53,473 nucleotides of DNA from Dehalococcoidales bacterium (GCA_034409905.1 DAOUMR010000080.1:1-53473); one strand, 5' to 3'. Shown: positions 3,470 through 53,473, numbered from the stretch's first letter. Notes: generated by a model not told the origin, from the sequence alone. A program made the numbers and translations.

Positions 3470-3598
3470 AATGGGGTATCTTTGCCCCGCCCCCCGTTTT
3501 TAATCTTTTCCCGCCCCCCGATTTTAATCTATTCCCGCCCGCCGCCCTTTAATGAAAAGAGGGGGCTTTTAGCCCCCTCTTAAAAACACCCCCGATGT
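3470..3598. repeat. Mosaic intergenic repeat cluster R1 (modules X, X, H)
   Basis: CCCCGTTTTTAATCTTTTCCCGCC, then CCCCGATTTTAATCTATTCCCGCCCGCCGCCC, then hairpin AAGAGGGGGC-ttta-GCCCCCTCTT. The same modules recur in R4, R5, R6, R10 and R14. Confidence 0.8.
3551..3581 (-). terminator. Intrinsic terminator candidate for the 3605-4018 gene (the H-module hairpin)
   Basis: On the minus strand: AAGAGGGGGC-uaaaa-GCCCCCUCUU followed by UUCAUU, about 25 nt after the stop codon. Confidence 0.45.
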
Positions 3599-3604
3599 TA
3601 CTTT

Positions 3605-4018
3605 TTAATCACCTGACCATTTCTCCCAACCATCGATTTTCAATTCCATAGCCTCAAGAACCCGCTCCTTTTGTTCTTTGGACTGAGGTGGGAAACCCTG
3701 CGCTTCTAGCGCTTTATCCATGTAATGAGTAAATTGTAGAGACCGGAAATTCATAAGACCTTTTAATTTTCCCATATCTAAAGCAATCATATAGCAAAAC
3801 CCTTGAATTGTTTCACAGCATATTTCAATTCGTTTTCTTGAGATTTCAGAGATTTGAGCAAGTTTCTCATTATCAAAAACCATGGCTTTCATGATTTCCG
3901 TATCAGATGCGTTTGGGTTTTTGGATTTAGATTCTGGATATAGGACAGTAACCTCTTTCGCCAATCGTTGAGCTTCTTTTTTCATGCTACGTTGCATAAG
4001 CCAATTAATAATCCCCAT
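3605..4018 (-). CDS. Hypothetical protein (137 aa), AT-rich orphan
   Basis: ORF track gives 3605-4027 with a GTG start. The ATG at 4018 has SD GGAGA about 9 nt upstream. Visibly lower GC than its neighbours. I recognise no family motif. Confidence 0.55.
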   Translation of the reverse strand: MGIINWLMQRSMKKEAQRLAKEVTVLYPESKSKNPNASDTEIMKAMVFDNEKLAQISEISRKRIEICCETIQGFCYMIALDMGKLKGLMNFRSLQFTHYMDKALEAQGFPPQSKEQKERVLEAMELKIDGWEKWSGD

Positions 4019-4055
4019 AGCTGTCACTCTCCGAAAGTTAATTTCATGTTATTAC

Positions 4056-4199
4056 TTATTTCTCCCTTCCCCTCCCCAGCCTCTTCATAATCGCATCCAT
4101 GTAAACCCGCGCCAGGTTCTTGCCGTGCTTGGCTATGCGCTCCCGCTTCTTCTTCAGCTTCTTCTCCCGCCGTTCCTGGCGGGTTTCCTCGTCAGTCAT
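4056..4199 (-). CDS. Small highly basic protein (47 aa), start overlaps the uvrB stop
   Basis: [47 protein letters not shown]. Its ATG lies inside AAAAATGACTGA, the last codons of uvrB (8-nt overlap), which suggests translational coupling. Confidence 0.4.
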
Positions 4200-6192
4200 T
4201 TTTTGACTCCACAATCTCCACCGGTTCGAACTCCTTGCGCAATTCAACGATGCGGTCCCTGATTAACGCCGCCTTTTCGAACTCAAGGTTGCGGGCGGCG
4301 GTCTTCATCTGCCCCTCAAGCTCCTTAATCAAGCGGGTGACGTCCTCGCGGGTGTGGGGGGCGGTGACATCATAGACGGCGCGGACCTCGGCGGCGACCT
4401 TGACCCGCTCGGTGATGTCCCTGATGGCTTTGCGGATGCCCTGCGGGGTGATGCCGTGCTCCTGGTTATAGTCCTCCTGGATGCGGCGGCGGCGCTGGGT
4501 CTCGTCAATGGCGGCCTGCATCGAGCTGGTGATGGTGTCGGCGTACATGATGACGTGGCCGTCAATGTGGCGGGCGGCGCGGCCCATCGTCTGAATCAGG
4601 GCGCCCTCCGACCTGAGGTAGCCCTCTTTATCGGCATCTAAAATCGCCACCAGGCTGACCTCGGGCAGGTCGAGCCCTTCGCGCAGCAGGTTTATGCCCA
4701 CCACCACGTCGTAAACGCCCAGCCTGAGGTCGCGCAGGATTTCCACCCTCTCCAAAGTATCAATCTCCGAGTGCAAATAGTGGGTCTTGACGCCCATCTC
4801 GATTAAATAATCGGCCAGCTCCTCGGCCATGCGCTTGGTCAAAGTGGTCACCAGGCAGCGCTCCTTTTTGTCCACGCGGGCCTTAATCTGTTCGAGGAGG
4901 TCGTCGATTTGCCCCTTGGTCGGCTTGATTTCCACCGTCGGCTCCAAAAGCCCGGTGGGGCGGACCAACTGCTCGACGACCTGGCTACTGTGCTTGTACT
5001 CGTACTCGCCCGGTGTGGCCGAGGTATAGACGACCTGGTTTACGCGCTGCCCGAACTCGGTGAAGTTCAGGGGGCGGTTGTCCAAAGCCGAGGGCAGGCG
5101 AAAGCCGTACTCCACCAGCGTTTCCTTGCGGGCGACGTCGCCGTGGTACATGCCGCGAATCTGGGGGATGGTCATGTGCGACTCGTCGATGAAGAGGAGA
5201 AAATCCTTGGGGAAGTAGTCCAAAAGCGTGGCCGGGGGGCTGCCGGGGGGTCTCTGCGCCAGGTGGCGGGAGTAGTTCTCCACGGCGTGGCAGTAGCCAG
5301 CCTCTTTGAGCATCTCAAGGTCGTAGTTGGTGCGGGCTTCGAGCCGGGCCGCCTCCAGAAGCTTGCCCTGAGCTTTTAGCTCGAATAGACGCTCGGCCAG
5401 TTCCTCTTTAATGCTCTCGATGGCCGTCATCAGCTTGTTGTGGGAGGTGACGAAGTGTTTGGCGGGATAGACGCTCACCGATTCCATCTCGCTGAGCATC
5501 TCACCGGTGAGGGGGTCTATCTCAATGATGCGCTCCAAAGTGTCGCCGAAGAACTCTATCCTCAGCGCCAGTTCCTCGTAGGCGGGCTGAATCTCCAGGG
5601 TATCGCCGCGCACGCGGAACTTGCCCCGCGTGAAGTCGATGTCGTTGCGCTCGTACTGCATGTCCACCAGCTGGCGCAGTAGTGTTTCTCTGCGGTAGCC
5701 CTCGCCGCGCTTTAGGCTTAAGACGAAGCCGAGGTATTCCTCGGGCTCGCCGAGCCCGTAGATGCAGGAGACCGAAGCCACGATGACCACGTCCCGCCGC
5801 TCGAAGAGGGAACGGGTGGCGGCGTGGCGCAGCTTGTCAATCTCCTCGTTGATTTCAATCTCCTTCTCGATGAAGGTGTCGGTGCGGGGGAGATAGGCCT
5901 CGGGCTGGTAGTAATCGTAATAGCTGACGAAGTACTCCACGGCGTTTTCGGGGAAGAACTCCTTGAACTCGGTGGAGAGCTGGGCAGCCAGCGTTTTATT
6001 ATGGCAGATGACCAGCGTGGGCCTTTGCACCCGAGCGATGACGTTGGCCATGGTGAAGGTCTTGCCGCTGCCGGTGACGCCGAGCAGCGTCTGGTGCTTG
6101 TAGTCTTTTTCCAGACCTTCCACCAGCTTATCCACGGCCTGGGGCTGGTCGCCCGTCATTCTGAAGTCGGAGACAATCTTGAAGTCGGACAT
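4192..6192 (-). CDS. uvrB: Excinuclease ABC subunit B
   Basis: Start taken at [10 protein letters not shown]... (ATG 6190-6192) rather than the ORF-track start at 6276. Walker [13 protein letters not shown] box (FIDESHMT), helicase motifs and the C-terminal UVR domain ([14 protein letters not shown]). Confidence 0.93.
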
Positions 6193-6198
6193 ACTAAT

Positions 6199-6227
6199 AG
6201 TATAGCTTTTGGGGATAGCGCTGACAA
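6199..6227 (-). promoter_or_regulatory. Sigma70-type promoter placing the uvrB transcription start at or near its ATG (leaderless)
   Basis: Minus strand: TTGTCA (6222-6227), 17 nt, TATACT (6199-6204), 6 nt, ATG. No SD between the -10 box and the ATG. Confidence 0.45.
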
Positions 6228-6233
6228 CGCCTA

Positions 6234-6261
6234 TTGACAGGGCGCGGGTTATTCTTATAGA
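6234..6261 (+). promoter_or_regulatory. Sigma70-type promoter for the dodecin gene
   Basis: TTGACA (6234-6239), 16 nt, TATAGA (6256-6261). Downstream SD AAGGAGGG, then ATG at 6312. Confidence 0.45.
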
Positions 6262-6311
6262 CTGAGTCATCCACATATGCGGAGCAACTGGCTCTAAAGA
6301 AGGAGGGTTAT

Positions 6312-6524
6312 ATGTCGGACAGCGTTTACAAGATAATTACGCTGGTGGGCACCAGCCCCAAGTCCTGGGAGGACGCGGCCAGGGAGGCGGTGGAGACCGC
6401 GGCCAAGACGCTGCGCGACCTGCGCATCGCCGAGGTCGAGGAGCTGGATATGCAGATTGACAAGGGCAAGGTTATCAGCTACCGCGCCAAGATAAGGGTC
6501 TCCTTTAAGTACGAGGGGAAATAG
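6312..6524 (+). CDS. Dodecin family flavin-binding protein
   Basis: 70 aa: [49 protein letters not shown]...[12 protein letters not shown], the typical dodecin pattern. Confidence 0.8.
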
Positions 6525-6559
6525 CCCGGTAGCTTAAAAGCTGAATATTAAGAGACGTT

Positions 6560-6904: not shown

Positions 6905-7104
6905 GATTGGGGGGTGGTTATCTACCTCACCCACTTTAGCCCTAAAAAATCTGCGATTTTTCAGGGAACCCGGATTTTTATCAACCTCACCCCCTGTGTC
7001 CCCCTCTCCTTACGAGGGGTCAAAGGAGAGGGGGAATTATTTTTTCTTAGAGAGGGGCTTCGCCCCTCTTAAACTCCCTGTTGGGGGGTGGGGGAGAGAA
7101 TAGA
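6905..7104. repeat. Mosaic intergenic repeat cluster R2
   Basis: Degenerate X-like boxes. A 12-bp-stem hairpin CCCCCTCTCCTT/AAGGAGAGGGGG (7000-7034) followed by a T-run. H hairpin (7050-7070). A reversed X-like box (GGGGGGTGGGGGAGAGAATAGATTA). Confidence 0.65.
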
Positions 7105-8094
7105 TTAAGAGGAGGGAAAGGGTATATTGTCTTTTACAGTCGTTTCGAATGGTGCTAATTCACTCTTGATTTTAGCAAGTTCGGTCTTACCTAAATAGAA
7201 TTCAATCAATGTGTTAATTCCTGCAATGATGACTTTAGTTAACTGAAGGAGGTCTTTATAGTGGGAGCATGCACTCCCCACGTCGTTCGTGCCAGATCGA
7301 TACATAATGGGATTAGCGTAGTTCGAACGACTGCGCATTCTGTATAGGAAGTCGCAGATGGAAGTAGCATGCATTTTGCTACAAATCTCTTTGTACTCTT
7401 CTCCGCAAATATTATGCCTTGTATGGCTTGCTTTTATTTTTTGCTTGTCCATTCGCCGCTTTTTATATTCGTCATTTAATTTTCTATATCGGGTTGTGGA
7501 TAAGCTTTTCCCAATAAAATCGTCAATCTTATCTGGTACCGGGTTTGCCAAGTTTATTTGTGCCATGACTTCAGTTGCTGAAGTGTCAAGATTTATAAAT
7601 GAAAAATTAGCTGGCTTTGGGCCACCTGTACATAAGCCGTTGAATGGATAAGGAAAGAGTCCTCTTAATACAGCGTCATGAAAAGCTTGGAGAAAATATC
7701 TATGAGTTACATACTTTGGAGGATCTTGCATTCGGATTGCTATCAAAGCTAAACCTACACCGTGAATGGCATAATAGGAAAGCACGGGTAGCCAGATATT
7801 TGCTGTAAATGTAAGCTCTGGGTATTTATCTACAGGCAAATCATTCATTAATTGAAGAGTAAGAAACCCGCGGAAATAGCTCCCTTTATCAAAATTATCC
7901 TTGTATATTTCAGGTTGCTTGGAATTACTAGCTATTCTGCTAATTTCATCTATAAACGCGTTTTCTGAGTTACCGTATTTTTGCTTATATGCGATATTCC
8001 ATGCCTTTATATAGTTGTAATAGGTGGTGAGGGGTAAGCTCTCTTCCGTTGAATCTTGGTCAGAGCTCGTTATTACTTCTATTGGTTTTGTCAT
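7105..8094 (-). CDS. Hypothetical protein (329 aa), AT-rich orphan
   Basis: Long ORF in a clearly AT-rich patch with an AGGGA RBS just upstream. No TM segments. I can assign no family motif. It contains RYFLQAFH (R-x6-H) and LYRMRSRSNYANP. Confidence 0.6.
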   Translation of the reverse strand: MTKPIEVITSSDQDSTEESLPLTTYYNYIKAWNIAYKQKYGNSENAFIDEISRIASNSKQPEIYKDNFDKGSYFRGFLTLQLMNDLPVDKYPELTFTANIWLPVLSYYAIHGVGLALIAIRMQDPPKYVTHRYFLQAFHDAVLRGLFPYPFNGLCTGGPKPANFSFINLDTSATEVMAQINLANPVPDKIDDFIGKSLSTTRYRKLNDEYKKRRMDKQKIKASHTRHNICGEEYKEICSKMHATSICDFLYRMRSRSNYANPIMYRSGTNDVGSACSHYKDLLQLTKVIIAGINTLIEFYLGKTELAKIKSELAPFETTVKDNIPFPSS

Positions 8095-8310: not shown

Positions 8311-8796
8311 CTACTCCCCCTCCCCCGTCTCCACCTCCTCGGCAATGCCGATGCGCTTCACCGAGAGGGGCACATAATTCACCATCTTGCACTCGATGAG
8401 GTCTTTGAGCTCCTTTTCGGCGGGGGAAAGCGCCGCCTTTTCCGTCTTGACCTCGATGAAGTCAATGCCCTCGCCGTATTTAATGCCGACGAAGTCAACC
8501 GGGTTGCCGCCGAGATAAAAAAGCCTGTCGTAGTGCGTCAGCTCCAGAGTAGCCAGAAGCTCGTTGAGCTTGCCGGCCCTGACCGCCTCGCTGGAGGTAA
8601 TAGATTTAAGGACATCGCGGGGGAGGCTTTCCAGTATGCGCTGAATCTCCCGCACCGAGTCCGCCGAAGCCAGAGCGAAGCGGAGCTTGTTAGCCAGCTC
8701 GTCAATGTCGGTGGCGGGGGCTTTGCGCGCCCGGAAAATCAAGACCAGGATTACGATAACGAGGAGGAAGATTACGGACAAGAGGGCATATTCCAT
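8311..8796 (-). CDS. Membrane-anchored endonuclease related to archaeal Holliday junction resolvase (COG4741-like, from memory)
   Basis: 161 aa. N-terminal TM anchor (LLSVIFLLVIVILVLIF), then ...LFYLGGNPVDFVGIKYGEGIDFIEVKTEKAALSPAEKELKDLIE, the D...E-x-K nuclease-fold pattern I associate with this family. Confidence 0.55.
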   Translation of the reverse strand: MEYALLSVIFLLVIVILVLIFRARKAPATDIDELANKLRFALASADSVREIQRILESLPRDVLKSITSSEAVRAGKLNELLATLELTHYDRLFYLGGNPVDFVGIKYGEGIDFIEVKTEKAALSPAEKELKDLIECKMVNYVPLSVKRIGIAEEVETGEGE

Positions 8797-10984: not shown

Positions 10985-11132
10985 ATCCCTCCGCCACCTT
11001 GTTTAGCGTAAGTCTTTCTGTCCCACCCAAAACCCACCCTATAAGGGTGGTACCCCTTATATATCCTCCTGTAGGGGATACGCCCATCCACCCCACCTTG
11101 TTGTGCGGAGGTCTTCTTGTCCCAATATTAGA
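10985..11132. repeat. Mosaic repeat cluster R3 (module A plus a partial A)
   Basis: CCGCCACCTTGTTTAGCGTAAGTCTTTCTGTCCCACCCAAAACCCACCCTATAAGGGTGGTACCCCTTATAT..., followed by a second CCACCTTGTTGTGCGGAGGTCTTCTTGTCCCAAT half copy. Confidence 0.85.
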
Positions 11133-11505: not shown

Positions 11506-11569
11506 GTTTTGGGATTATAGTCTATTTGTGGGGGGTGTTCAAGGTGGAGTAGTTTTCCAGAGGGGTTTT

Positions 11570-11872
11570 CACTCCACCACCCCGCCTTGTTAGCGTACGT
11601 ATAGATGTCCCACCCAACGCCCTCCCTACAAGGGTTAGACCCTTATATATCTCTTATATAGGATACGCCGCGCATCCCCACCCTATGTTTTAGGGGTTCC
11701 AAAGGGGGCTATGCCCCCTTTTACCTTAAAAGGGCGGTGGGTGGGAATAGATAAAATCGGGGTGGGGGGATAACACCCCCCAAATAAGGGGCTAATAGGG
11801 GATTATCCCCTGTAGGGTGGGTATTGGGTGGGACGGAAATACCTTCGCTAAACAGAGGGGAGCGGGGAGGCG
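11570..11872. repeat. Mosaic repeat cluster R4: A(+), reversed H and X, A(-), i.e. inverted A copies at both ends
   Basis: A(+) at about 11575-11690. Then GGGGTTCCAAAGGGGGCTATGCCCCCTTTTACCTTAAAAGGGCGGTGGGTGGGAATAGATAAAATCGGGG (reverse of X+H). A(-) at about 11775-11870 (GGGGATTATCCCCTGTAGGGTGGGTATTGGGTGGGACGG...CGCTAAACAGAGGGG). Confidence 0.85.
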
Positions 11873-11908
11873 ATTTGGAATTTAGTTGCCACTGGTGTTA
11901 AAATTAGG

Positions 11909-11931
11909 GGCGGAGCAAATCCGCCTTTTTT
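11909..11931 (+). terminator. Terminator-like hairpin between cluster R4 and the HAD gene
   Basis: GGCGGA-gcaaa-TCCGCC followed by TTTTTT. No annotated plus-strand gene lies upstream of it. Confidence 0.35.
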
Positions 11932-11974
11932 ATAACGAATAAAGGCGTGGGCGGTTATCTAGAAAGGGAATTAA

Positions 11975-16948: not shown

Positions 16949-17857
16949 GTGAAAGAAGCTGTTGACAGTTTCCTGGACTATCTGGCGGTGGAGAAGGGCT
17001 TTTCGGCCAACACCATAGCCGCCTATCGCAACGACCTGCACCAGCTCGCCAGCTTCATTGAGGAAGAGGCGTCCAGGCGGGGCACCATACCGCCCTGGGC
17101 GGCTTTCGACCGCCAGGCGATGATGACTTATCTGCTGGAGCTTAAAGGCAGGGGCTATGCCGCCGCCACCGTCGCCCGCAAGGTTGCCGCCGTCAAGTCC
17201 TTTTTCGGCTTTATGGTCGCCGAGGGGATGATGAAGGATAACCCGACGGAGGGGGTGGCTGCGTCCAAGGTGGGCAAGTCGCTGCCCAAGCCGATTTCCA
17301 TCGCCCAGGTGCACAAGCTGCTGGAGCAACCGAACAAGTCGGCTGCCGCCGAAGCCAAGCGAGACAAGGCGATGCTGGAACTGCTCTACGCCACCGGCAT
17401 GAGGGTCAGCGAGCTGGTGGCCCTGAACCTGCCCGACCTGGATACCGAAGGCGGCTACGTGCGCTGCTTCGGCAAGGGGCACAAAGAAAGGATTATTCCC
17501 GTCCACGAAAGGGCGATTAAGGCGGTTAAAGATTACCTGAAAGAGGTCAGGCCGCGACTGGGGCGGGGTGGGGACGAAAAGGCGGTCTTCTTAAACCGCC
17601 GCGGCGAAAGGCTGACCCGGCAGGGCTTATGGCAGATACTGAAAGGTTACGCCAAAGCCGCCGAGCTGGGGACGGAGATTACCCCCCATACATTGCGGCA
17701 CAGCTTTGCCACCCACATGCTGGGGGGCGGCGCCGACCTGAGGTCAGTGCAGGAACTACTGGGACACGCCAACATCTCCACCACCCAGGTCTATACCCAC
17801 CTCACCACCGAGCACGTCCGTCGCGCTTACGAGAAATCTCACCCCAGGGCCAAATAG
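16949..17857 (+). CDS. xerD: Tyrosine recombinase XerC/XerD
   Basis: GTG start with SD GAGGGAGAG. Core-binding domain (YLAVEKGFSANTIAAYRNDL). Catalytic R...HxLRHSFATH...GH...Y. XerC and XerD cannot be separated by eye. Confidence 0.85.
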   Translation: MKEAVDSFLDYLAVEKGFSANTIAAYRNDLHQLASFIEEEASRRGTIPPWAAFDRQAMMTYLLELKGRGYAAATVARKVAAVKSFFGFMVAEGMMKDNPTEGVAASKVGKSLPKPISIAQVHKLLEQPNKSAAAEAKRDKAMLELLYATGMRVSELVALNLPDLDTEGGYVRCFGKGHKERIIPVHERAIKAVKDYLKEVRPRLGRGGDEKAVFLNRRGERLTRQGLWQILKGYAKAAELGTEITPHTLRHSFATHMLGGGADLRSVQELLGHANISTTQVYTHLTTEHVRRAYEKSHPRAK

Positions 17858-21281: not shown

Positions 21282-22126
21282 AAAGAATCGGCATTTTAAT
21301 CAGTCTAGCCCTCATCATCTTAAGCGGGCTGGCCGGCGCTGGCTATGTCTGGGCTTCCTCGTCGGGAGGTTTCTACGACATCAATGGCGAAATCTTCGAC
21401 GACTGGTCGATATGCCGCACGCGCTCTTTCGGCGAGGACGGTTTTTACCAGCTGACGGCCACCAATTTTCGTCCAGTTATCGCCTTCGAGAGCCTGGGGG
21501 AGAACGCCGATATGGCCTACCGCCTGGGGCAGGAGATAGCCGCGGAGTATCCCGACATCGTCCAGCGAGCGGAGGCGGTATTCTACTTCGTGCGGGACAG
21601 GGTAAGGTATACCAGCGACATCGACCTGGTAGGCTATGAGGAGTTCGCCATAAACGCCGACGAGCTGGCGGTTATTATCGACAATGACAGGCTGGGCTAC
21701 GGCGACTGTGAGGACAGTGCCGTGCTGCTGGCGGTGATGTGCCAGGGGGCAGGGCTGCGCTCGGCCATAGCCATCGGCGAGGAGCATACCGCCGCCCTCA
21801 TCTTTCTGCCCGATTACGACCAGGCCACCGCCTTTTTCGAGCTTTCCGGGGAGATGGGCTGGATATGGGCCGAAGCCACCGGCAGGGATAACCCGCTGGG
21901 CTGGGTGCCCAAGGAGTTCCTGGACGTGAGGGTGGTTGCCTACGAGGTGACCGAGGAGACACTGGCCCGCGCCAAGGAAGCCTCGCAGCCGGAGGTTACC
22001 GTGGCGCAGACGGATGTGGGGGTTGGGGGAGGCAGCAATTTTTCTATGCTTTTCCCCTTTTTAGGGGTGGTTTTCTTTTTGTGGTTTTTCAGTTCTTTGT
22101 TCCGGAGGAGGAAGCGGGCTAGATAG
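21278..22126 (+). CDS. Transglutaminase-like cysteine peptidase domain protein, membrane anchored
   Basis: Signal/TM at the N-terminus. Core GYGDCEDSAVLLAVMCQGAGLRSAI...EHTAALIF...WIWAEATG. C-terminal TM plus RRRKRAR. Start overlaps the previous stop (ATGA). Confidence 0.6.
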   Translation: MKRIGILISLALIILSGLAGAGYVWASSSGGFYDINGEIFDDWSICRTRSFGEDGFYQLTATNFRPVIAFESLGENADMAYRLGQEIAAEYPDIVQRAEAVFYFVRDRVRYTSDIDLVGYEEFAINADELAVIIDNDRLGYGDCEDSAVLLAVMCQGAGLRSAIAIGEEHTAALIFLPDYDQATAFFELSGEMGWIWAEATGRDNPLGWVPKEFLDVRVVAYEVTEETLARAKEASQPEVTVAQTDVGVGGGSNFSMLFPFLGVVFFLWFFSSLFRRRKRAR

Positions 22127-22575
22127 GGTTTGCCCACTCCAGCTTACTTTTCCCACCCAAACCCCACCCTAAACTTTCCAACCTCTCTTTAACTCTCTTA
22201 TCCACTCTGAACATTCCCCCCCCATCTTGGCGAACGTGGGTTTTTCGCCCCAACCCAGCCCGCCCTAATGAGTTAAACTCCTTAACTTGGGGGCACTTTG
22301 CCTCCCACCCCTTTTTAATCTTTTCCCGCCCACCGCCCTTTAAGGTAAAGAGGGGCGCAGCCCCTCTTAAACACCCCAGAGCGTCGTTAGTCTTATACAT
22401 TTCGGGGGTTCCAAAGGGGGCGAAGCCCCATTTGAAAGACCTTTGTGGGCGGGCTGGTGTGGGAAAAACAACCTGGGGGGTGGGGGAAAAGAAAGACTGG
22501 ATTCCCGCCTTCGCGGGAATGACGGGGAGATTGCTTCGCTTCGCTCGCAATGACAATAGAACCGGGGGGATAATC
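22127..22575. repeat. Mosaic repeat cluster R5 (largest: A variants, X, two H hairpins, reversed A half, P1, P2)
   Basis: Contains CCCACCCAAACCCCACCC, ...CCCAGCCCGCCCTAATGAGTTAAACTCCTTAACTTGGGGG, CTTTTTAATCTTTTCCCGCCCACCGCCCTTTAAGGTAAAGAGGGGCGCAGCCCCTCTTAAACACCCC, CCAAAGGGGGCGAAGCCCCATTTG, ATTCCCGCCTTCGCGGGAAT (22501-22520) and GATTGCTTCGCTTCGCTCGCAATGAC (22529-22554). Confidence 0.85.
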
Positions 22576-22585
22576 AAAAAGTCAC

Positions 22586-22614
22586 TTGCTCTATGAGGCG
22601 GCTCTGATTATAAT
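22586..22614 (+). promoter_or_regulatory. Sigma70-type promoter for the EF-G paralog
   Basis: TTGCTC (22586-22591), 17 nt, TATAAT (22609-22614). Confidence 0.45.
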
Positions 22615-22647
22615 AGGGGGGTTAGCTTAGAGAGTAGGTGGCATTGT

Positions 22648-24708
22648 ATGCAACAGTATGGACTGGAGAATATCAGAAACGTGGTCTTGCTGTCTCACAG
22701 CGGCGCGGGCAAGACATCGGCCTCGGAGGCGATGCTGTTTAGCGCCGGAGCCATCAAGCGGCTGGGCAAGGTTGATGACGGCAGCACCACCTCGGACTAC
22801 GACCCCGACGAGGTAAAGCGACAGATAAGCATAAGCCTTTCTCTGCTCCCTCTGGAGTGGAAGGGGGCCAAGCTGAATATTATCGATACCCCTGGCTATT
22901 CCGACTTCGTCGGCGAGGTCAGGGCGGCGATGAGGGTTTGTGAAGGGGCGGTGATTATGGTCTGCGCGGCTTCGGGGGTTGAGGTGGGCACCGAGCAGGT
23001 CTGGGGATACTGTGAGCAAGGCAGCCTGCCGCGGCTTATCTTTATCAACAAGATGGACAGGGAGAACGCCGACTTTAACAAGACGGTGGGACAGATTCAA
23101 GAGCGCTTCGGCGCCAAGTGCCTGCCGTTACAGCTGCCCATCGGCTCTCAAAATACCTTCGAGGGCGTCGTCAGCCTGCTGACGATGAAAGCCTACACCG
23201 GCAGCGACGCCAAAGAGGGGGATATTCCCGAAGCGCTCCAGTCCCAGGCCAACTCTTTTCGCGAGAAGCTGATAGAAGCGGCGGCTGAAGTTGACGACAA
23301 ACTCATCGAAAAATACCTGGAGGGGCAGGAGCTGAGCCAGGAGGAAATCGGGGCGGGGCTGCGCCAGGCGATAACGGCCGGAAAGCTGGTGCCCATCCTG
23401 ACCGGCTCGGCACTGAAGAACATCGGCATTGGCCTGCTGATGGACGCCATACACGGTTACCTGCCCTCGGCTAAAGATAGCAAGGTGATAACCGTCACCG
23501 ATTCCAAGGAGCAGACATCGGCGCCGAGCGCGGATGCCCCCTTAGCTGCCCTCGTCTTCAAGACTACCGCCGACCCCTACGTGGGCAAGCTGACCTATTT
23601 CCGCGTCTATAACGGCGCTATGGCCAGCAACTCGCAGGTCTGGAACGCCAACCGCAAGGGCGCCGAGCGCATCGGGCAGTTGTTTATGGTTCGGGGCAAG
23701 AACCAGGAACCGGTGCCGCAGGTCGGGGCGGGGGATATGGGGGCGGTAGCCAAGCTGACCACGACCAACACCGGTGATACCCTTTGCACGCAGGCGAAGC
23801 CGCTCAAGATTGCTCCTATCGAGTTCCCCGAGCCGGTCTTCAGCCTGGCGGTGCACCCCAAGACCAAGGCTGACCTGGATAAGCTGGGTTCGGCTTTAAC
23901 CAGGCTCGCCGAGGAAGACCTCACCATCGAGGTGCGCCGCGAGACGAGCACCAACGAGACGATTCTATCGGGAATCGGCGAATCGCAGCTCGAGGTCGCC
24001 GCCGACCGTATGCAGCGCAAGTTCGGGGTGGGGGTGAAGCTGGATGTGCCCAAGGTGCCCTACCGGGAGACGATTATGGCCGGGGCTAAGGCCGAGTATA
24101 AGCATAAGAAGCAGACGGGGGGCCACGGCCAGTACGGGCATGTCCTCCTTGAGCTGGAGCCTTTGCCGAGGGGTACCGGGCACGAGTTCGCCAATAAGAC
24201 AGTGGGTGGCTCCATACCCCGCAACTATATCCCCGCCGTGGAGAAGGGGGTCAACGAAGCCGTGCAGGAGGGGGTGCTGGCAGGTTACCCGGTAGTTGAC
24301 GTCAGGGCGACGGTCTATGACGGCAGTTTCCACCCGGTGGACTCCTCGGAGATATGCTTTAAGATTGCCGGGGCGGGGGCGTTCAAGAAAGGCCTGGCCG
24401 AGGGGCAGCCCATCCTGCTCGAGCCGATAATGAACATCGAGGTCACCGTCCCCGAGGACTATACGGGGGATATTATCGGCGACCTGAACACCAAGCGGGC
24501 CAGAGTGCAGGGAATGAACCCCGGGGGTGGCTATAACGTCATCGAAGCCCAGGTGCCTCAGGCCGAGATTTTGCGCTATTCCATCGACCTGAAGTCAATC
24601 ACCCAGGGGCGGGGCAGCTACAAAGCCAGCTTCAGTCACTACGAAGAGGTGCCCGCCCACATTACCGAGAAGATTATCGCCGCTAGGCAGGCGGAGAAGG
24701 CCTCGTGA
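22648..24708 (+). CDS. Elongation factor G paralog (EF-G-like GTPase with a divergent G domain)
   Basis: 686 aa with five-domain EF-G layout. G1 SHSGAGKTS (canonical AHIDAGKTT), switch II DTPGYSDF (canonical DTPGHVDF), G4 NKMD. Confidence 0.85.
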   Translation: MQQYGLENIRNVVLLSHSGAGKTSASEAMLFSAGAIKRLGKVDDGSTTSDYDPDEVKRQISISLSLLPLEWKGAKLNIIDTPGYSDFVGEVRAAMRVCEGAVIMVCAASGVEVGTEQVWGYCEQGSLPRLIFINKMDRENADFNKTVGQIQERFGAKCLPLQLPIGSQNTFEGVVSLLTMKAYTGSDAKEGDIPEALQSQANSFREKLIEAAAEVDDKLIEKYLEGQELSQEEIGAGLRQAITAGKLVPILTGSALKNIGIGLLMDAIHGYLPSAKDSKVITVTDSKEQTSAPSADAPLAALVFKTTADPYVGKLTYFRVYNGAMASNSQVWNANRKGAERIGQLFMVRGKNQEPVPQVGAGDMGAVAKLTTTNTGDTLCTQAKPLKIAPIEFPEPVFSLAVHPKTKADLDKLGSALTRLAEEDLTIEVRRETSTNETILSGIGESQLEVAADRMQRKFGVGVKLDVPKVPYRETIMAGAKAEYKHKKQTGGHGQYGHVLLELEPLPRGTGHEFANKTVGGSIPRNYIPAVEKGVNEAVQEGVLAGYPVVDVRATVYDGSFHPVDSSEICFKIAGAGAFKKGLAEGQPILLEPIMNIEVTVPEDYTGDIIGDLNTKRARVQGMNPGGGYNVIEAQVPQAEILRYSIDLKSITQGRGSYKASFSHYEEVPAHITEKIIAARQAEKAS

Positions 24709-24714
24709 GCGGGG

Positions 24715-25150
24715 TGTGCGCGGCTAACCACCCCGCCCTGTTAGCGTAGGTAATTTCGTCCCACCCACTTACCGCCCTTAGAGGGTATTCTCCCTCTAGC
24801 ATTCCTTTTGAGGGGACGTGTCCCCGCCACCCCGATTTTATCTATTCCCGCCCACCGCCCCACTCTGTCGGCGTACGTTATTTCTTCCCACCCAATACCC
24901 ACCCTATAGAGGTTAGACCTCTGTAGACTTCTTATTTGGGAGATGCATCTCCTCCCCGCCCCACCTTGTTTAGCGTGCGTATTGTTTTCCCACCCAATAC
25001 CCACCCTATAAAGGTGTAACCTCTATAAACTTCTCTCCCCGTCCAACCAAGAATATCAAAATCCTAAATTCTAAATCACTTAATTTCTTCTTTTTTAGGA
25101 TTTAGATATTAGGATTTCGTGCTTAGAGTTTTGGGTGGGTGGGAATAGGT
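24715..25150. repeat. Mosaic repeat cluster R6 (A, X, A, A in tandem, then AT-rich module Z)
   Basis: Three same-orientation A copies (about 24728-24830, 24860-24955, 24958-25040) with X (CCCCGATTTTATCTATTCCCGCCCACCGCC) after the first. Z at about 25045-25135 (AAATCCTAAATTCTAAATC...TTAGGATTTAGATATTAGGATTTCGTGCTTAGAGTT). Confidence 0.85.
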
Positions 25151-25217
25151 TGAGACAGGGTGACGTGCGCTTTTTCAAAATGACGTATGGAAGCAGGGGT
25201 GTCTTTAGGAGGAGGCT

Positions 25218-32469: not shown

Positions 32470-32640
32470 AGCTTTTCGTTTTTCCTCCCCACCTTGTTTA
32501 GCGAAGGTGTGATTTTCCCACCCAATACCCACCCTGCAGAGGTGTAACCTCTATAGACTTCTCTCCCTACCCCCGATTCTGTCATTCCCGCGAAGGCGGG
32601 AATCTAGTTTTACCCCTTTTTATCCCCTCCTTTTAGCGCA
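32470..32640. repeat. Mosaic repeat cluster R7 (A, P1)
   Basis: CTCCCCACCTTGTTTAGCGAAGGTGTGATTTTCCCACCCAATACCCACCCTGCAGAGGTGTAACCTCTATAG..., then GTCATTCCCGCGAAGGCGGGAATC (palindrome at 32584-32603). Confidence 0.85.
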
Positions 32641-33699: not shown

Positions 33700-33880
33700 G
33701 TCAAGTGGGTGTTTTTTGGGGGGGGATTTACCACCTTTGAAAAAGGGGGATTTTTTGTCCTACCTCCCCACCTTGTTTAGCGGAGGTGTGATTTTCCCAC
33801 CCAGCCCGCCCTAATGAGCTGGCGCTCTTTAACTTGGCTCTTTTGGGGGTGGGAAAAGATACAAAACAGGGTGGGAATAA
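33700..33880. repeat. Mosaic repeat cluster R8 (A variant with CCCAGCCCGCCCTAATGAG tail)
   Basis: CTCCCCACCTTGTTTAGCGGAGGTGTGATTTTCCCACCCAGCCCGCCCTAATGAGCTGGCGCTCTTTAACTTGG..., the same variant as in R5 and R11. Confidence 0.75.
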
Positions 33881-33895
33881 TAAAAATAGGAAAAC

Positions 33896-39055: not shown

Positions 39056-39160
39056 TGCCTATCCGTCAATACCAATGAATGAACGTTCATTCATATTTTA
39101 CTAAGGGCAAAAGCTCTTGTCAAGTGGTTGGGTGGAGGGGTGGGGTGCAAAGTAATGAAG

Positions 39161-39234
39161 TGGCTGCCGAGCCAGGATTCGAACCTGGGTCAAAGGATCC
39201 AAAGTCCTCTGTGCTACCACTGCACCACTCGGCA
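39161..39234 (-). tRNA. tRNA-Gln (UUG)
   Basis: Acceptor UGCCGAG/CUCGGCA, anticodon loop CUUUGGA, T-arm CCAGGUUCGAAUCCUGG, CCA encoded. Confidence 0.9.
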
Positions 39235-39241
39235 TCAAAGA

Positions 39242-39330
39242 TGGTGCCGAAGGTCGGGTTCGAACCGACACGGGGGTTGCCCCCCAACAGTTTTTGAGAC
39301 TGTCGCGTCTGCCTGTTCCGCCACTTCGGC
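39242..39330 (-). tRNA. tRNA-Leu (CAA)
   Basis: Acceptor GCCGAAG/CUUCGGC, anticodon loop CUCAAAA, long variable arm (UGGGGGGCAACCCCCGU), CCA encoded. Confidence 0.9.
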
Positions 39331-39430
39331 TCTGAGTCCTTAAAAGTGCCTCAGGTTGCCGTATTTTACTGCATAACAGGGTAGGGCGCAACAAGAAGTG
39401 CCGATAGGCGCACGGTTGGGGGAGGGGAAA

Positions 39431-39502
39431 AGCGGAAGACGAGATTCGAACTCGCGACCCTCTCCTTGGCAAGGAGATGCTCTACCGCTGAGCCACTTCC
39501 GC
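39431..39502 (-). tRNA. tRNA-Gly (GCC), CCA not encoded
   Basis: Acceptor GCGGAAG/CUUCCGC, anticodon loop UUGCCAA, T-arm GCGAGUUCGAAUCUCGU. Discriminator U is followed by UUU, not CCA. Confidence 0.9.
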
Positions 39503-39551
39503 ATATTCACCCACAAAAATCTTTGATTTTTGCGGGGACCCGTTATTCAAG

Positions 39552-39627
<76 letters not shown>

Positions 39628-43239: not shown

Positions 43240-43560
43240 TGTATCCCCGCCACCTTGATAGCGTAGGTATTATCGTCCCACCCAATGCCCACCCTATAAG
43301 GGTGGTACCCCTTATATATCCTCCTGTGGGGTTACGCCTCCCGACTCCACCTTGTCATTCCCGCCCCGTATCCAGTGTACGGGGTAAACTCCGGCGGGAA
43401 TCCAGTCCCTCTTCCCCCCACCCCTTAAGATTGCTTCGTTGCTGTGCTCCTCGCAATGACGATAGCACTGGGGGTTTTTAAGGGGGGCGAAGCCCCCCTT
43501 TGAAAGACGTTTGTGGGTGGGTTTTGGGTGGGACGATAATACCTGGGGGTGGGGCTAAAG
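43240..43560. repeat. Mosaic repeat cluster R9 (A, nested P1, P2, H, reversed A half)
   Basis: A(+) at 43245-43340. ATTCCCGCC[CCGTATCCAGTGTACGGGGTAAACT]CCGGCGGGAAT (43357-43401). GATTGCTTCGTTGCTGTGCTCCTCGCAATGAC. AAGGGGGGCGAAGCCCCCCTTTG. GGGTGGGTTTTGGGTGGGACGATAATACCTGGGGGTGGGG (A reversed). Confidence 0.85.
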
Positions 43561-44499: not shown

Positions 44500-44770
44500 T
44501 TCCCCCAGTCTCCCCACTCTGTTAGCGAACGTATTATCTTCCCACCCTGCCCGCCCTTAGATGGGATTCACCCTCTAGAATTCCTTCCGGATGTGTTTTG
44601 CCTCCCCGCCCCGTTTTAAATCTTTTCCCGCCCGCCGCCCTTTAAGGTAGAAAGGGGGCTTTGCCCCCTTTAAAACCCCCCAATAAGGGATTTATAGAGG
44701 TCTAACCTCTGTAGGGTGGGTATTGGGAGGGACAGAGAAACGTTCGCTGACAGGGTGGGGGTGAAAAAGG
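44500..44770. repeat. Mosaic repeat cluster R10: A(+), X, H, A(-), i.e. inverted A copies at both ends
   Basis: TCCCCACTCTGTTAGCGAACGTATTATCTTCCCACCCTGCCCGCCCTTAGATGGGATTCACCCTCTAG... CCCCGTTTTAAATCTTTTCCCGCCCGCCGCCCTTTAAGGTAGAAAGGGGGCTTTGCCCCCTTT ... TATAGAGGTCTAACCTCTGTAGGGTGGGTATTGGGAGGGACAGAGAAACGTTCGCTGACAGGGTGGGGG. Confidence 0.85.
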
Positions 44771-45714: not shown

Positions 45715-45925
45715 GGGGCTTTCCAACCAACCCCACTCTGTTAGCGTACGTAAGAATGTCCCAACCCAGCCCGCCCTAATGAGTTAAACTCCTTAATCTG
45801 GGGGTTACGGCCACCCCGCCCCCCATTTTGTCATTCCCGCCCCGTATCACGTACGGGGTAAACTCCGGCGGGAATCCAGCCCCTCTTCCCCCCTTAGATT
45901 GCTTCGCTTCGCTCGCAATGACAGA
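45715..45925. repeat. Mosaic repeat cluster R11 (A variant, nested P1, P2) between panB and panD
   Basis: AACCCCACTCTGTTAGCGTACGTAAGAATGTCCCAACCCAGCCCGCCCTAATGAGTTAAACTCCTTAATCTGGGGG. ATTCCCGCC[CCGTATCACGTACGGGGTAAACT]CCGGCGGGAAT (45833-45875). GATTGCTTCGCTTCGCTCGCAATGAC. Confidence 0.85.
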
Positions 45926-47234: not shown

Positions 47235-47343
47235 ATTCTAAATACTTTAGCTATTTCTGCCGTCTCGGTCGTATCCGATCCAAGCGGACCCAGATTGTTA
47301 ATTTTAAAGTTATTTAGCTTACCGCCCCCACGGGTCGATAGCC
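47204..47343 (-). promoter_or_regulatory. Candidate cis-regulatory leader RNA (attenuator/riboswitch-like; possibly pan-motif related)
   Basis: Roughly 140-nt non-coding stretch between its own promoter and the terminator. A long-range 12-bp helix with one bulged A (47305-47317 with 47238-47250). GAGACGGC (47259-47266) can pair with the 5' arm of the terminator (7 of 8 bp), which gives a possible antiterminator. Confidence 0.4.
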
Positions 47344-47964: not shown

Positions 47965-48215
47965 CTGTTTCTAAAGCGCGTTTTTCGGCCCACCCAACCT
48001 CCCCACCTTGTTTAGCGTAAGTTTTTCTGTCCCGCCCAAATCCCACCCTATAAGGGTGGTTCCCCTTATATATTCCCTTGTTGGGTTGCGCTACCCAACC
48101 CCGCTCTGTTAGCGTAGGTATTGTCGTCCCACCCAATACCCACCCTATAGAGGTTAGACCTCTATAAACTCCTTATTGGGGTACGCCCCACCACCCGGGT
48201 GGTGCCCCTTTTATA
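47965..48215. repeat. Mosaic repeat cluster R12 (half A, A, A, extra hairpin)
   Basis: Two full same-orientation A copies (about 48000-48090 and 48098-48185), preceded by a half copy and followed by CCACCACCCGGGTGGTG. Confidence 0.85.
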
Positions 48216-48223
48216 TCCCCACA

Positions 48224-48849: not shown

Positions 48850-49095
48850 TTCTTCCCCACCCCCCACTCTGTTAGCGTGCGTTTTTCTTTCCCACCCAAT
48901 ACCCGCCCTACAGAAGTGTCACTTCTATAGATTTCTCTCCCCACTCCCCAACGGGAGAAGTCTCTAAATCCTAATATCTAAACTCTAAACAGGCACGAAT
49001 TGCGTTGTTTAGTATTTAGGATTTCGTGCTTAGAGTTTCTAATGGGTGGGAATAGATAAAATTGGGGGTATGAGATTGCTTCGTTTCGCTGGCAA
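48850..49095. repeat. Mosaic repeat cluster R13 (A, Z, reversed X, P2)
   Basis: CCCCCCACTCTGTTAGCGTGCGTTTTTCTTTCCCACCCAATACCCGCCCTACAGAAGTGTCACTTCTATAG. Z (CTCTAAATCCTAATATCTAAACTCTAAACAGGCACGAA...TTAGGATTTCGTGCTTAGAGTT). GGGTGGGAATAGATAAAATTGGGGG. GATTGCTTCGTTTCGCTGGCAATGAC. Confidence 0.85.
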
Positions 49096-49107
49096 TGACG
49101 GTAGGAT

Positions 49108-50879: not shown

Positions 50880-50887
50880 GGGGGAAT

Positions 50888-52105
50888 ATGGGACTATCAA
50901 CTATTGAAGAAGCGATTAAAGATGTAAAAGAGGGAAGGTTCGTCATCATCGTTGATGACGAGGACAGGGAGAACGAGGGCGACCTGGCGCTGGCCGCGGA
51001 AAAGGTCAGCCCCCAGGCGATTAACTTTATGACCAAACACGGGCGGGGCTTGGTCTGCCTGCCGGTTGTCGGAGAGCGGTTGGACAAATTACAACTGCCC
51101 CTGATGGTCGATGAGAACACCTGCAAGTTCGGCACCGCCTTCACCGTGTCGGTGGACGCCAAGCAGGGGACCACCACCGGTATCTCAGCGGCGGACCGGG
51201 CGCAGACGGTTAAGACCGTCATCGACCCCGCTACCCGGCCCGACGACCTGGTCAGGCCGGGGCATATCTTCCCGCTAAGGGCCAGAGAGGGTGGGGTGCT
51301 GGTGCGGGCGGGACAGACGGAGGCCATCGTCGATTTAGCCCGACTGGCCGGTCTCTATCCAGCCGGGGTTATCTGCGAGATTATGAACGAGGATGGCACC
51401 ATGGCCAGGCTGCCTCAGCTTGAGGAGATTGCCGACAAGTTCGACATTAAGATAATATCGGTGGCCGACCTTATCGCCTACCGCCGCCGCCACGAAAAGC
51501 TGGTGCACCGTGTGGCTGAGGCCAAGCTGCCCACCAGGTACGGTGAGTTCACCGCCATCGCCTACCGCAGCGACATCGACCCTGACGAGCACTTGGCGCT
51601 GGTGATGGGGGACCTGGATACCGATGAGCCCGTTCTGGTGCGGGTGCACAGTGAGTGCCTCACCGGTGATGTCTTCGGCAGCCTGCGCTGCGACTGCGGC
51701 GACCAGATCGGGATGGCTATGGAGAGCATCGCCAAGGAGGGGCGGGGCGTCTTCCTCTATATGAGGCAGGAGGGGCGGGGCATCGGCTTCCATAATAAGA
51801 TACGGGCTTACGCCCTTCAGGACAAGGGGCTGGATACGGTGGAGGCTAACCTTTCCTTAGGTTTCCCCTCCGACCTGCGTGATTACGGCATTGGCGCCCA
51901 GATTCTAGCCGACCTGGGCTTACATGACATAAAGCTATTGACCAACAACCCCAAGAAGGTCATCGGTCTGGAGGGCTACGGGCTCAAAGTGGTGGAAAAG
52001 GTGCCGATTATTATTACCCCCAACCCTTATAACCGCAACTACCTGGTGACCAAGCAGAAAAAGATGGGTCACCGCCTGGAGATACCCGATATCGCCGATA
52101 ATTAA
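50888..52105 (+). CDS. ribBA: Bifunctional 3,4-dihydroxy-2-butanone-4-phosphate synthase / GTP cyclohydrolase II
   Basis: DHBP synthase ([12 protein letters not shown]) plus GCH II zinc motif ([18 protein letters not shown]). Confidence 0.92.
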
Positions 52106-52120
52106 CAAAAGGAGAAAGCA

Positions 52121-52600
52121 ATGAGCAAACCTATTGAAGGAATGCTGGTAGGGAAGGGGCTGAAGTTCGGGCTGGTCGTTTCCCGTTTCAACGATTTTCT
52201 TACCCAGAAGCTGCTCGACGGGGCGCAGGATGCCCTGCTCCGCCACGGCGTTGCCCAGGCGGATATCGATGTCGCCTGGGTGCCGGGCTCGTTCGAGATT
52301 CCCCTCATCGCCAAGAAGCTAGCCCAGACCAAGCGCTATGACGCTGTTATTTGCCTGGGGGCGGTGATAAGAGGGGGAACGCCTCACTTTGAATATATCT
52401 CCGCCGAGGTAACCAAGGGGATTGCCATGGTGGGGCTGGAGACGGGGCTGCCGGTTATCTACGGCGTAATTACGGCTGATAGCCTGGAGCAGGCTATCGG
52501 GCGGGCCGGGACAAAAGAGGGGAACCAGGGCTTTAAAGCCGCGGTCAGCGCTATCGAGATGGCTAATCTGGTGAAGAGCATCGCCAAGCCCAAACCCTAG
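52121..52600 (+). CDS. ribH: 6,7-dimethyl-8-ribityllumazine synthase
   Basis: [17 protein letters not shown]..., [22 protein letters not shown]. Confidence 0.92.
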
Positions 52601-52884
52601 AAGGACGTAGCCACCGTCAGCTTGGACGGTTCGGTCAGCAGGGGTTCAATCTTGGACTCAACCTCTAAGCGCTTGGGGTCGCCTTTCCAGGACTGCCAGT
52701 CGAGCTCGCTCTGCCAGGTGCTCAGGGCAAAGATGGTGGACTTGTCTTCCTGGCTCTGGAGAAGCTCACCGGAGACATAGCCCGGTTGCTCGATTAGCTC
52801 GGTGCGCAGATTGTTCAATAGCTCGATGAGGTGACCTTCTTTACCCTTTTTTACGTGCCGTTCTATCAGTACCTTTAGTGCCAT
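52597..52884 (-). CDS. Antibiotic biosynthesis monooxygenase (ABM) domain protein
   Basis: 95-aa ferredoxin-like ABM pattern (...[12 protein letters not shown]...[12 protein letters not shown]). Its stop overlaps the ribH stop (CTAG, convergent). Confidence 0.6.
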
Positions 52885-52910
52885 ATTTTTGCTTTCTAGT
52901 TGATTGGCTT

Positions 52911-53165
52911 TTAGTCGGTAACCTTGTAGACGGTGTCACCCCGCCTTACCCGCTCGTTGACCTTGATGCCAACCGAGTCCCCGGTTTTGGCTTCGCTAAC
53001 GTTGGCGTTGTTAATCTGCATTGAGTCAACAACAAATTCCATATCGGTAGTGTGGCCCTTGATATGGATTTTGTCGCCCAGTTTGAGGCTGCCACTCATC
53101 TCAATGCCAGCCACCACCGGCCGAGCGAAGAAGTCGCTTACCTTGCCGATTTCTTTCTCGGGCAT
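52911..53165 (-). CDS. Small beta-barrel protein resembling translation factor domain II
   Basis: 84 aa: LKLGDKIHIKGHTTD...A.TGDSVGIKV..RVRRGDTVYKV, reminiscent of the EF-Tu domain 2 barrel. Confidence 0.45.
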   Translation of the reverse strand: MPEKEIGKVSDFFARPVVAGIEMSGSLKLGDKIHIKGHTTDMEFVVDSMQINNANVSEAKTGDSVGIKVNERVRRGDTVYKVTD

Positions 53166-53249
53166 TGGCTCCCTCCTTCACAATTTTTTATTTCCTAGTA
53201 TAGGACGATGTTTTTAATAAATCAATAGATTTTGGGTAAGGTTTTGGGC

Positions 53250-53473
53250 AACCCCGCCACCTTGTTTAGCGAAGGTGTGATTTTCCCACCCAATACCCAC
53301 CCTATAAGGTTGGTACCCCTTTTATATCTCCCTGTAGGGTGTGCCCCACCCCTGTATTATCTATTCCCGCCCGCCGCCCTTTTAAGGTAAAGAGGGGCAT
53401 AGCCCCTCTTAAACACCCCAGGGGACGTTAGCTCCACATAATGTTTTGGGGGGTTCTTAAGGGGGGGCGAATT
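53250..53473. repeat. Mosaic repeat cluster R14 (A, X, H, second H truncated by the window end)
   Basis: CCCCGCCACCTTGTTTAGCGAAGGTGTGATTTTCCCACCCAATACCCACCCTATAAGGTTGGTACCCCTTTTATAT... CCCCTGTATTATCTATTCCCGCCCGCCGCCCTTTTAAGGTAAAGAGGGGCATAGCCCCTCTTAAACACCCC. Confidence 0.85.

Follow-up and report, generated by a model that had tools for sequence, protein, structure and literature searches.

A dispersed, apparently undescribed family of mosaic intergenic repeats in uncultured Dehalococcoidales

We analysed a 53,473-nt stretch of DNA from a Dehalococcoidales bacterium (GCA_034409905.1, DAOUMR010000080.1:1-53473; hereafter the window) in which 14 intergenic spacers contain mosaic repeats of two unit types, A (~95 nt) and X+H (~80 nt), together with the accessory modules P1, P2, and Z. 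This repeat family is real, dispersed, and apparently undescribed. Our preferred reading, to which we assign a probability of roughly 60%, is that the modules are lineage-specific, non-coding, non-autonomous repeats of an uncultured Dehalococcoidales clade, of the type of repetitive extragenic palindromic (REP) sequences, bacterial interspersed mosaic elements (BIMEs), and REP doublets forming hairpins (REPINs), and that they are moved as folded single-stranded DNA (ssDNA) by an enzyme encoded elsewhere. The initial annotation of the window had likened the mosaics to BIMEs and to the neisserial intergenic mosaic elements (NIMEs). This likeness holds: there are two unit types in alternating orientation, linkers, and both tandem and inverted arrays, with no terminal inverted repeats (TIRs) or target-site duplications (TSDs) of the kind that mark a classical MITE (miniature inverted-repeat transposable element).

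The cores of the modules recur in the window far more often than expected by chance, which bears out the original observation that 14 spacers are assembled from a few common modules. The 21-mer A core TCCCACCCAATACCCACCCTA has 14 matches at up to 3 mismatches where 0 are expected; matches to the X core number 6, against an expectation of 0.06, and those to P2 number 3, against 0. A de novo repeat search of the window independently recovered families of 84-97 nt in both orientations. With a profile hidden Markov model we count 17 copies of A (14 on the plus strand and 3 on the minus strand), and a profile search yields 8-9 copies of X+H; in addition there are 4 copies of P1, 4 of P2, and 2 of Z. 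Bases with at least five non-syntenic matches amount to 2,586 bp (4.8% of the window) in 15 intergenic intervals, and the cluster spans, including P1, P2, and Z, cover ~3.2 kb (6%), close to the ~3.5 kb estimated at first. The initial list needs correction in that X and H, listed there separately, usually form one unit; the second 'H-like' hairpin is H in reverse orientation, and the ends of module A bear further G-run/C-run hairpins. Pairwise identity among copies inside the window is 74-86%, in keeping with the earlier estimate of 70-90%: the copies are old and do not reflect a recent burst.

The repeats are spread widely within one lineage. We compared the window with other repeat-bearing stretches from metagenome-assembled genomes (MAGs), metagenomes, and viral contigs (loci with L numbers). 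The exact A core is found in at least 100 stretches of a species-representative genome collection, all but one of them from 12 uncultured Dehalococcoidales/Dehalococcoidia MAGs (CAYPBF01, DAOULR01, JASFEJ01, and JASFHK01 among them); at least 120 stretches from metagenomes carry it too, and viral contigs have none. About 0.3 occurrences of this 21-mer would be expected by chance in the 596-Gb scan. A match in Christensenella (L073 2040-2170, MAG CAJUCM01) was set aside as a chance one, being a bare 21-mer in 33% G+C DNA without head or hairpin. Within 1.56 Mb of related sequence around repeats there are 421 hits to A and 178 to X+H. None of the loci compared is more than ~89% identical to the window, and many are syntenic with it. 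Clustering in a single window is what might suggest a local duplication or an assembly artefact of this region, an explanation that we now give virtually no chance. It is refuted by the lineage search, which places modules in non-syntenic contexts on hundreds of independent contigs from at least 12 related MAGs and many metagenomes, so that the family is dispersed, as first supposed, and not confined to this locus. Searches of a literature library on the module sequences and on Dehalococcoidia repeats returned nothing on A, X+H, P2, or Z.

A and X+H share a plan in which a C-rich head (CCCCACC...) comes before a C3-tract core and a stem-loop. Within A, the head ...CCCCACC-TTGTT(T)AGCG-TACGT is followed by ~8 variable nt, the core TCCCACCCAATACCCACCC (pattern CCCNCCC-N2-4-CCCNCCC), a 9-bp stem-loop, a short tail, and a GGGG-loop-CCCC hairpin. 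In X+H, the head CCCCACCCCGATTTTATCT and the core ATTCCCGCCCRCCGCCC precede the hairpin AAGAGGGGC-N3-GCCCCTCTT. Given the common order of head, C-tract core, and hairpin, X+H looks like a shorter paralogue of A. The stems of the A subfamilies differ (GGG/CCC, GAGG/CCTC, GAAG/CTTC, AAGG/CCTT, GGGGAT/ATCCCC), and pairing is kept throughout. Among 150 A copies aligned to a covariance model, 9/9 pairs of the hairpin are changed on both sides, and such changes fill 179 cells compared to 68 +/- 6 after shuffling and no more than 39 when partners are slid; these copies share descent, and their alignment was itself fitted to this model. A comparison of G-T with A-C mismatches, bearing on which strand of the A hairpin folds, is confounded by a one-base register shift in one subfamily. 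We also considered a 5'-box stem in A (CACCTT...AAGGTG) and rejected it, as it is present in some subfamilies only and shows no convincing covariation.

The core retains its tracts: four C3 tracts are present in 134 of the 150 aligned copies, with loops that vary (A/G/T; AATA, TG, TA, AG, and others). On the opposite strand, GGGTGGGTATTGGGTGGG, the A core reads as a predicted short-loop G-quadruplex (G4) motif, with four tracts of at least three G and loops of 1-7 nt. The window has 24 G4 motifs, where 6.7 +/- 2.5 are expected by chance, and 18 of them lie in A cores.

The units are joined mostly tail-to-tail. Of 164 module junctions, 92 are A(+) followed by X+H(-), tail-to-tail; 34 are A(+) followed by X+H(+), head-to-tail; 22 are tandem A A; 15 are A(+) A(-), again tail-to-tail; and only 1 is head-to-head. 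The tail-to-tail doublets measure 168-301 bp, with their heads outward and sharp ends (CCCCACC... and ...GGTGGGG) that form a short imperfect inverted repeat, CCCCACCYYG.TTT and its complement. Elements of this size with inverted repeats at their ends could be classical MITEs, that is, deletion derivatives of a DDE-type insertion sequence (IS) moved in trans, with TIRs and TSDs. We give this idea little credence. No TSD is found at 31 doublet ends; the inverted repeat extends over just ~7-13 nt within two units that otherwise differ; units often stand singly, in tandem arrays, or in head-to-tail pairs; and a transposase is absent from the window and from the 1.56 Mb of related loci. CCCCACC(TTG) stands at both ends of A, and it may be either a target or part of the element.

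The orientation of A follows replication skew rather than transcription. In co-directional spacers, A shows no preference relative to the flanking genes (31 vs 26), and it is commoner in divergent spacers (43) than in convergent ones (19). When A is compared with GC skew, with the coding-strand effect averaged out, the counts are 32:5 vs 5:12 (p = 6e-5), or 15:2 vs 3:9 per locus. With metagenome loci included, the C-rich hairpin strand of A coincides with the G>C strand in 101:34 cases (n=135, p = 7e-9), and an independent metagenome subset gives 49:19. By the standard rule, assumed to apply to this genome, the leading-strand sequence is the one with G>C; given this rule, the hairpin strand of A would be the lagging-strand template. 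'Peel and paste' transposition of ssDNA by IS200/IS605 elements uses the lagging-strand template.

Individual copies turn over and are reshuffled between species. In 28 comparisons of orthologous spacers, A is missing 16 times; the copies that are present have 50-75% identity, compared to 76% at third codon positions. In contrast, the best matches of the window A copies, at non-orthologous sites in other genomes, are 80-91% identical. Because conservation of the core across the family is joined to turnover at single loci, constraint would seem to act on propagation rather than on individual sites. Two loci that are 99.7% identical, L230 and L097, differ by a 72-bp indel whose breakpoints fall in TGGGCGGGAA, common to the X core and the A core; from this indel it can be seen directly how hybrid and truncated modules come about. 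As the comparison of loci shows, recombination between shared cores leads to deletion, fusion, and inversion of modules and of intervening genes. In L091 1-2540 (JASFEJ010000067.1), aligned with window 22127-25217, an EF-G segment of 2.2 kb has the orientation opposite to that in the window, L027, L089, and L023. Because inverted A/H/X composites bound the segment, an essential gene seems here to have been inverted through the repeats. Another difference, a 583-bp indel at L191 6138-6767 relative to L192 and L230 (contigs 94% identical), was examined and dismissed: it is a gene-sized, reverse-strand ORF-like segment unrelated to the repeats.

The structure and placement of the repeats raise the question of whether they are kept because they work for the host, the core being a predicted G4/i-motif or a protein-binding site and the hairpins acting as insulators, terminators, or mRNA stabilisers in DNA or RNA. 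Several observations point this way: the short-loop G4 motif persists in subfamilies with different loop lengths and hairpin sequences, the elements have replication-polar orientation, clusters lie between promoters or convergent gene ends, and some copies are kept between species, such as the A copy at 32480-32564, upstream of prfA, which is retained in L054 with 89% identity. The turnover data argue otherwise. Orthologous copies are conserved no better than third codon positions, spacers hold anywhere from 0 to 4 copies, entire clusters are absent and unreplaced in the orthologous spacers of close relatives, and there is no orientation preference relative to transcription. A reading of A as a promoter was rejected for lack of a consistent -35/-10 pair, as was a terminator reading, given that most modules are not terminator-like in a consensus scan; in Rfam 15 the repeats have no match at the gathering score and nothing better than E = 2 (scan at E <= 5). 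We therefore regard a host function as unlikely. The copies make themselves visible in spacers of inflated and variable length, in spurious ORFs, and in local rearrangements, and no locus-specific function is seen.

One accessory module does belong to a named family. A GIY-YIG nuclease, SsnA, binds and cuts the single-stranded form of the Neisseria Transformation Sequence (NTS), which contains dRS3; the NTS has been generalised to 'Ssn-related motifs' (SRMs) across phyla (PMC11893778). P1 (GTCATTCCCGCGAAGGCGGGAATCCAG) fits the NTS consensus CGTCATTCCCGCGMAVGCGGGAATCYRG base for base, including the dRS3 palindrome ATTCCC-N8-GGGAAT, and it is invariant across species. The window has fitting copies at 22497-22523(-) and 32581-32607(+) and long-loop variants at 43354-43405 and 45830-45879; together with the MAG loci, 10 P1 copies fit the NTS. 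The initial statement that the modules cannot be linked to a named family thus fails for P1 and stands for A, X+H, P2, and Z, none of which fits the NTS/SRM pattern; for P1, the likeness to NIMEs is a literal one. P2 consists of GTCATTGCGAG, a GC-NNN-GC mini-hairpin, and CGAAGCAATC; it has the GTCAT...ATC frame in common with P1 and fails the published degenerate SRM pattern.

Given the exact fit and invariance of P1 and the shared frame of P2, the whole mosaic could be a NIME-type system in which P1, and perhaps P2, is cut by an Ssn GIY-YIG nuclease, with A, X+H, and Z as passenger 'RS' modules. The P1 27-mer is also present in 74 viral contigs, in one of which an ssn remnant lies between inverted copies. 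We nonetheless find such a system distinctly improbable. P1 is present in only 4 of the 14 window clusters, and even with a loosened pattern there are 24 P1-like motifs vs 421 A hits in the 1.56 Mb; therefore, P1 is not the general junction. Moreover, P2 falls outside the published pattern, the sampled DNA yields no ssn homologue, and the sole base-resolved breakpoint lies in the X and A cores, not in P1.

Two further observations concern P1. In the copies at 43354-43405 and 45830-45879, which are ~90% alike, a second hairpin (CCCCGTA...TACGGGG plus TAAACTCCG) lies within the NTS loop, suggesting a nested insertion or a distinct NTS variant. The viral contig with the ssn remnant (L145 1-280, IMGVR_UViG_3300009529_003239) begins with an array of GTCATTCCCGCTTCGCCTT half-motifs, followed by NTS(+), the remnant, and NTS(-); the remnant is a truncated 26-codon Ssn-like GIY-YIG ORF (MKTYYVYIMASKVNDTLYIG...). 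The presence of the NTS motif in Chloroflexota, in the window and MAG loci, and separately in the 74 viral contigs points to a wider reach of the NTS/Ssn system described in 2025.

Returning to our preferred reading of REP/BIME/REPIN-type repeats, the units would be recognised as folded single strands at the replication fork and then copied or moved by an ssDNA enzyme, specific for sequence and structure, whose gene lies elsewhere in the genome; the candidate enzymes would be an HUH Y1 transposase resembling REP-associated tyrosine transposases (RAYTs) or an Ssn-like GIY-YIG nuclease. Such a model would account for a core that is conserved, a stem that covaries, the lack of TSDs, and an orientation polar to replication. 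The window itself has no transposase gene, as initially stated. The accompanying claim that it has no other mobility gene needs correction, although with little consequence: the sole recombinase gene, at 16949-17857, scores above both the XerD and the XerC cut-offs, so it is a housekeeping dimer-resolution enzyme.

Several results weigh against this reading. Using RayT (4ER8) and three IS200/IS605 TnpAs, all PDB-verified, as queries, we found no RAYT or IS200/IS605 TnpA at phmmer E <= 10 in 15,108 six-frame ORF fragments from the 1.56 Mb around repeats, a sample that is a small, repeat-centred fraction of each genome. Regex, tblastn, and phmmer (E <= 10) searches of the same 1.56 Mb, with consensus queries rather than authentic SsnA, revealed no homologue of ssn, the cd10448 GIY-YIG gene often flanked by the motif, and the related loci sampled contain no multi-copy protein family. 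Because no RAYT, IS200/IS605, or Ssn gene is present in this sample, we can only infer the mobilising enzyme. Signs of current activity are missing as well: window copies are at most 86% identical to one another, and 243 kb of pairs at least 93% identical contain no new insertion and only one deletion-type indel. X+H (23:42) and P2 (2:12) show a skew bias opposite to that of A, as would follow if the tail-to-tail doublet were the oriented unit; for X+H, this means that polarity belongs to the doublet and not simply to C-richness. The orientation bias could also arise from selection, for example against a G4 or hairpin on one template strand, instead of from the insertion mechanism. Finally, the units differ from REPs in being 80-100 nt rather than 20-40 nt long, and instead of GTAG 5' of the hairpin they have CCCACCC(T)A, with the CCCCACC head and the four-C3-tract core.

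These departures from known systems leave room for a tentative and, in our judgement, rather improbable variant, in which A and X+H are substrates of a fork-coupled ssDNA enzyme that reads the four-tract G4/i-motif-type core together with the covarying hairpin, making them a mobile-element class distinct from REP/RAYT, IS200/IS605, and NTS/Ssn. A distinct class of structured-DNA element would make sense of C3 tracts that are invariant throughout the family, of the absence of TSDs, and of doublets with replication polarity in otherwise IS-poor Dehalococcoidales genomes.

The 14 clusters combine the modules as follows. Cluster 1 (3475..3595, plus strand) has two X heads and then one X+H unit at 3514-3593, and the weak cluster 2 (6983..7082, plus strand) has an H-like GC hairpin at 7048-7078 and a second hairpin. 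Cluster 3 (10986..11124, plus strand), a complete A at 10986-11080 with the 5' fragment of a second A, is wholly missing from the orthologous spacer in L033, L255, and L274. Cluster 4 (11570..11872) combines A(+) at 11574-11666, X+H(-) at 11690-11773, and A(-) at 11774-11868; it is flanked by two divergent promoters that are conserved in three species (spacer 11506-11974), and its repeat content differs in L031 and L033. Cluster 5 (22148..22554) begins with an A-core fragment (22148-22171), a variant A (22211-22300, plus), and X+H (22297-22379, plus) and continues on the minus strand with H and an A core (22403-22480), P1/NTS (22497-22523), and P2 (22529-22554). Cluster 6 (24724..25160) runs from a variant A (24724-24817) through X (24820-24860) and two A units (24852-24946, 24953-25037) to an AT-rich hairpin Z (25059-25117) and an X(-) fragment (25136-25160); in L027, its 509-bp spacer after EF-G is replaced by 10 bp. 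Cluster 7 (32480..32607, plus strand), upstream of the true prfA start, pairs the A at 32480-32564 with P1/NTS at 32581-32607.

In the second part of the window, cluster 8 (33760..33892) adjoins tRNA-Asn and consists of a variant A(+) at 33760-33848 and X(-)-like fragments at 33846-33892. Cluster 9 (43242..43556) has A(+) at 43242-43332, P1/NTS(+) with a hairpin nested in its loop at 43354-43405, P2(-) at 43429-43460, and H(-) with an A core(-) at 43470-43556. Cluster 10 (44510..44765) is made up of a variant A(+) at 44510-44586, X+H(+) at 44601-44682, and A(-) at 44675-44765, and cluster 11 (45727..45922) of a variant A(+) at 45727-45796, a long-loop P1/NTS(+) at 45830-45879, and P2(-) at 45897-45922. 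Tandem A units of different subfamilies (47995-48086 and 48094-48182) and a terminal GGGTGGTGCCCC hairpin form cluster 12 (47995..48220, plus strand); this tandem pair, 47995-48182, corresponds to a single A in L012. Cluster 13 (48859..49099) comprises A(+) at 48859-48938, Z at 48966-49024, an X(-) fragment at 49043-49067, and P2(-) at 49074-49099, and the order A-Z-X(-) is common to it and to 24953-25160 of cluster 6. Cluster 14 (53249..53473) contains A(+) at 53249-53343, X+H(+) at 53339-53421, and the beginning of H(-), cut off by the end of the window.

Housekeeping genes are found in the window, which is a stretch of bacterial chromosome with 57% G+C; they include ftsK, uvrB, uvrC, xerD/C, EF-G, prfA, an Mrp/ApbC-type Fe-S carrier, ribD/ribBA, and five tRNAs. 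A pan motif (Rfam, 45.7 bits) at 47256-47343 on the minus strand precedes the pan operon, which encodes a DUF2520/Rossmann reductase, panD, panB, and panC, in keeping with an origin in Chloroflexota. The tRNA genes Gln, Leu, Gly, and Phe are grouped at 39101-39472 / 39161-39627, and a mechanically called ORF at 39101-39472 is spurious, crossing three of them. Adjoining cluster 2 is a minus-strand ORF of 329 aa (7105-8094) that matches nothing in Pfam or NCBIfam. It lies in an island of 40% G+C, the window having 57%, and may be of foreign origin. The 982-bp 'gap' preceding cluster 1 (2626-3420, minus strand) is not repeat: three short ORFs lie there on the reverse strand, all with a ribosome-binding site of the GGAGG type, and their predicted products look like small membrane proteins. 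At 8311-8796 (minus strand) lies the gene for a 161-aa protein, kept in L033, L244, L255, and L274, which is hydrophobic in an N-terminal segment and weakly matches PF10107 (endonuclease related to archaeal Holliday junction resolvase); no evidence ties it to the repeats.

The repeats matter for annotation in a lineage known almost only from MAGs, as they yield false ORFs and false N-terminal extensions. The ORFs at 22119-22577, a product of cluster 5, and 24741-25004 had been called spurious, and indeed both lie inside clusters and match no protein family. The extension of prfA over the A copy at 32480-32564 likewise proves false, as suspected, because the profile match begins only at residue 59-63 of the 414-aa ORF. 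Many contigs end in repeats, which probably break assemblies, and between housekeeping genes that otherwise keep their synteny the repeats mark indel and inversion hot spots. With its invariant G4-capable core, covarying hairpin, and replication polarity, the family offers a comparative case for weighing spread by an ssDNA enzyme against replication-linked selection.

The family appears to work in the manner of REP/BIME/REPIN and NIME systems; P1 belongs to the NTS/SRM family, and the other modules fail the sequence criteria of REPs, NIMEs, and MITEs. BIMEs of E. coli combine two REP types in inverse orientation with linkers, in single, tandem, and chimeric forms (PMC3333891). Like these and the REPINs of Pseudomonas, the repeats described here are intergenic hairpins of two unit types, paired inversely with linkers in single, tandem, and chimeric arrays; copy number varies by locus, there is no TSD, and stems vary with complementarity kept. 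Unlike in REPINs, the doublet partners are diverged paralogues, so that the doublet is not one long palindrome, and although RAYTs (TnpA_REP) are typically flanked by their REPs, no RAYT was found with the repeats in the 1.56 Mb sampled. As in the NIMEs and NTSs of Neisseria, P1 sits among 50-150-bp repeat modules of intergenic mosaics. In contrast to the neisserial arrangement, the dRS3-type motif is restricted to 4 of 14 clusters, most A and X+H units abut directly and are unbracketed, no ssn gene turned up in the sample, and the host phylum is Chloroflexota.

Palindrome-associated transposable elements (PATEs), which derive from IS200/IS605, provide another parallel, in that they are hairpins with conserved flanks, without TIR or TSD, and with one strand preferentially on the lagging-strand template. 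They differ from the present family in that no TnpA/TnpB was found here, that no distinct left and right ends, with conservation of a tetra- or pentanucleotide target, could be demonstrated, and that arrays and doublets are the rule instead of isolated elements. The BOX elements of Streptococcus pneumoniae (boxA-boxB(n)-boxC) are also modular intergenic repeats with a variable number of modules and predicted stem-loops; BOX elements keep their modules in a fixed order and in a single orientation within each element, whereas this family has alternating orientation and several unit types. Set beside these systems, the repeats are a familiar kind of genomic feature, and what most deserves attention in them is the G4-capable invariant core and the replication polarity.

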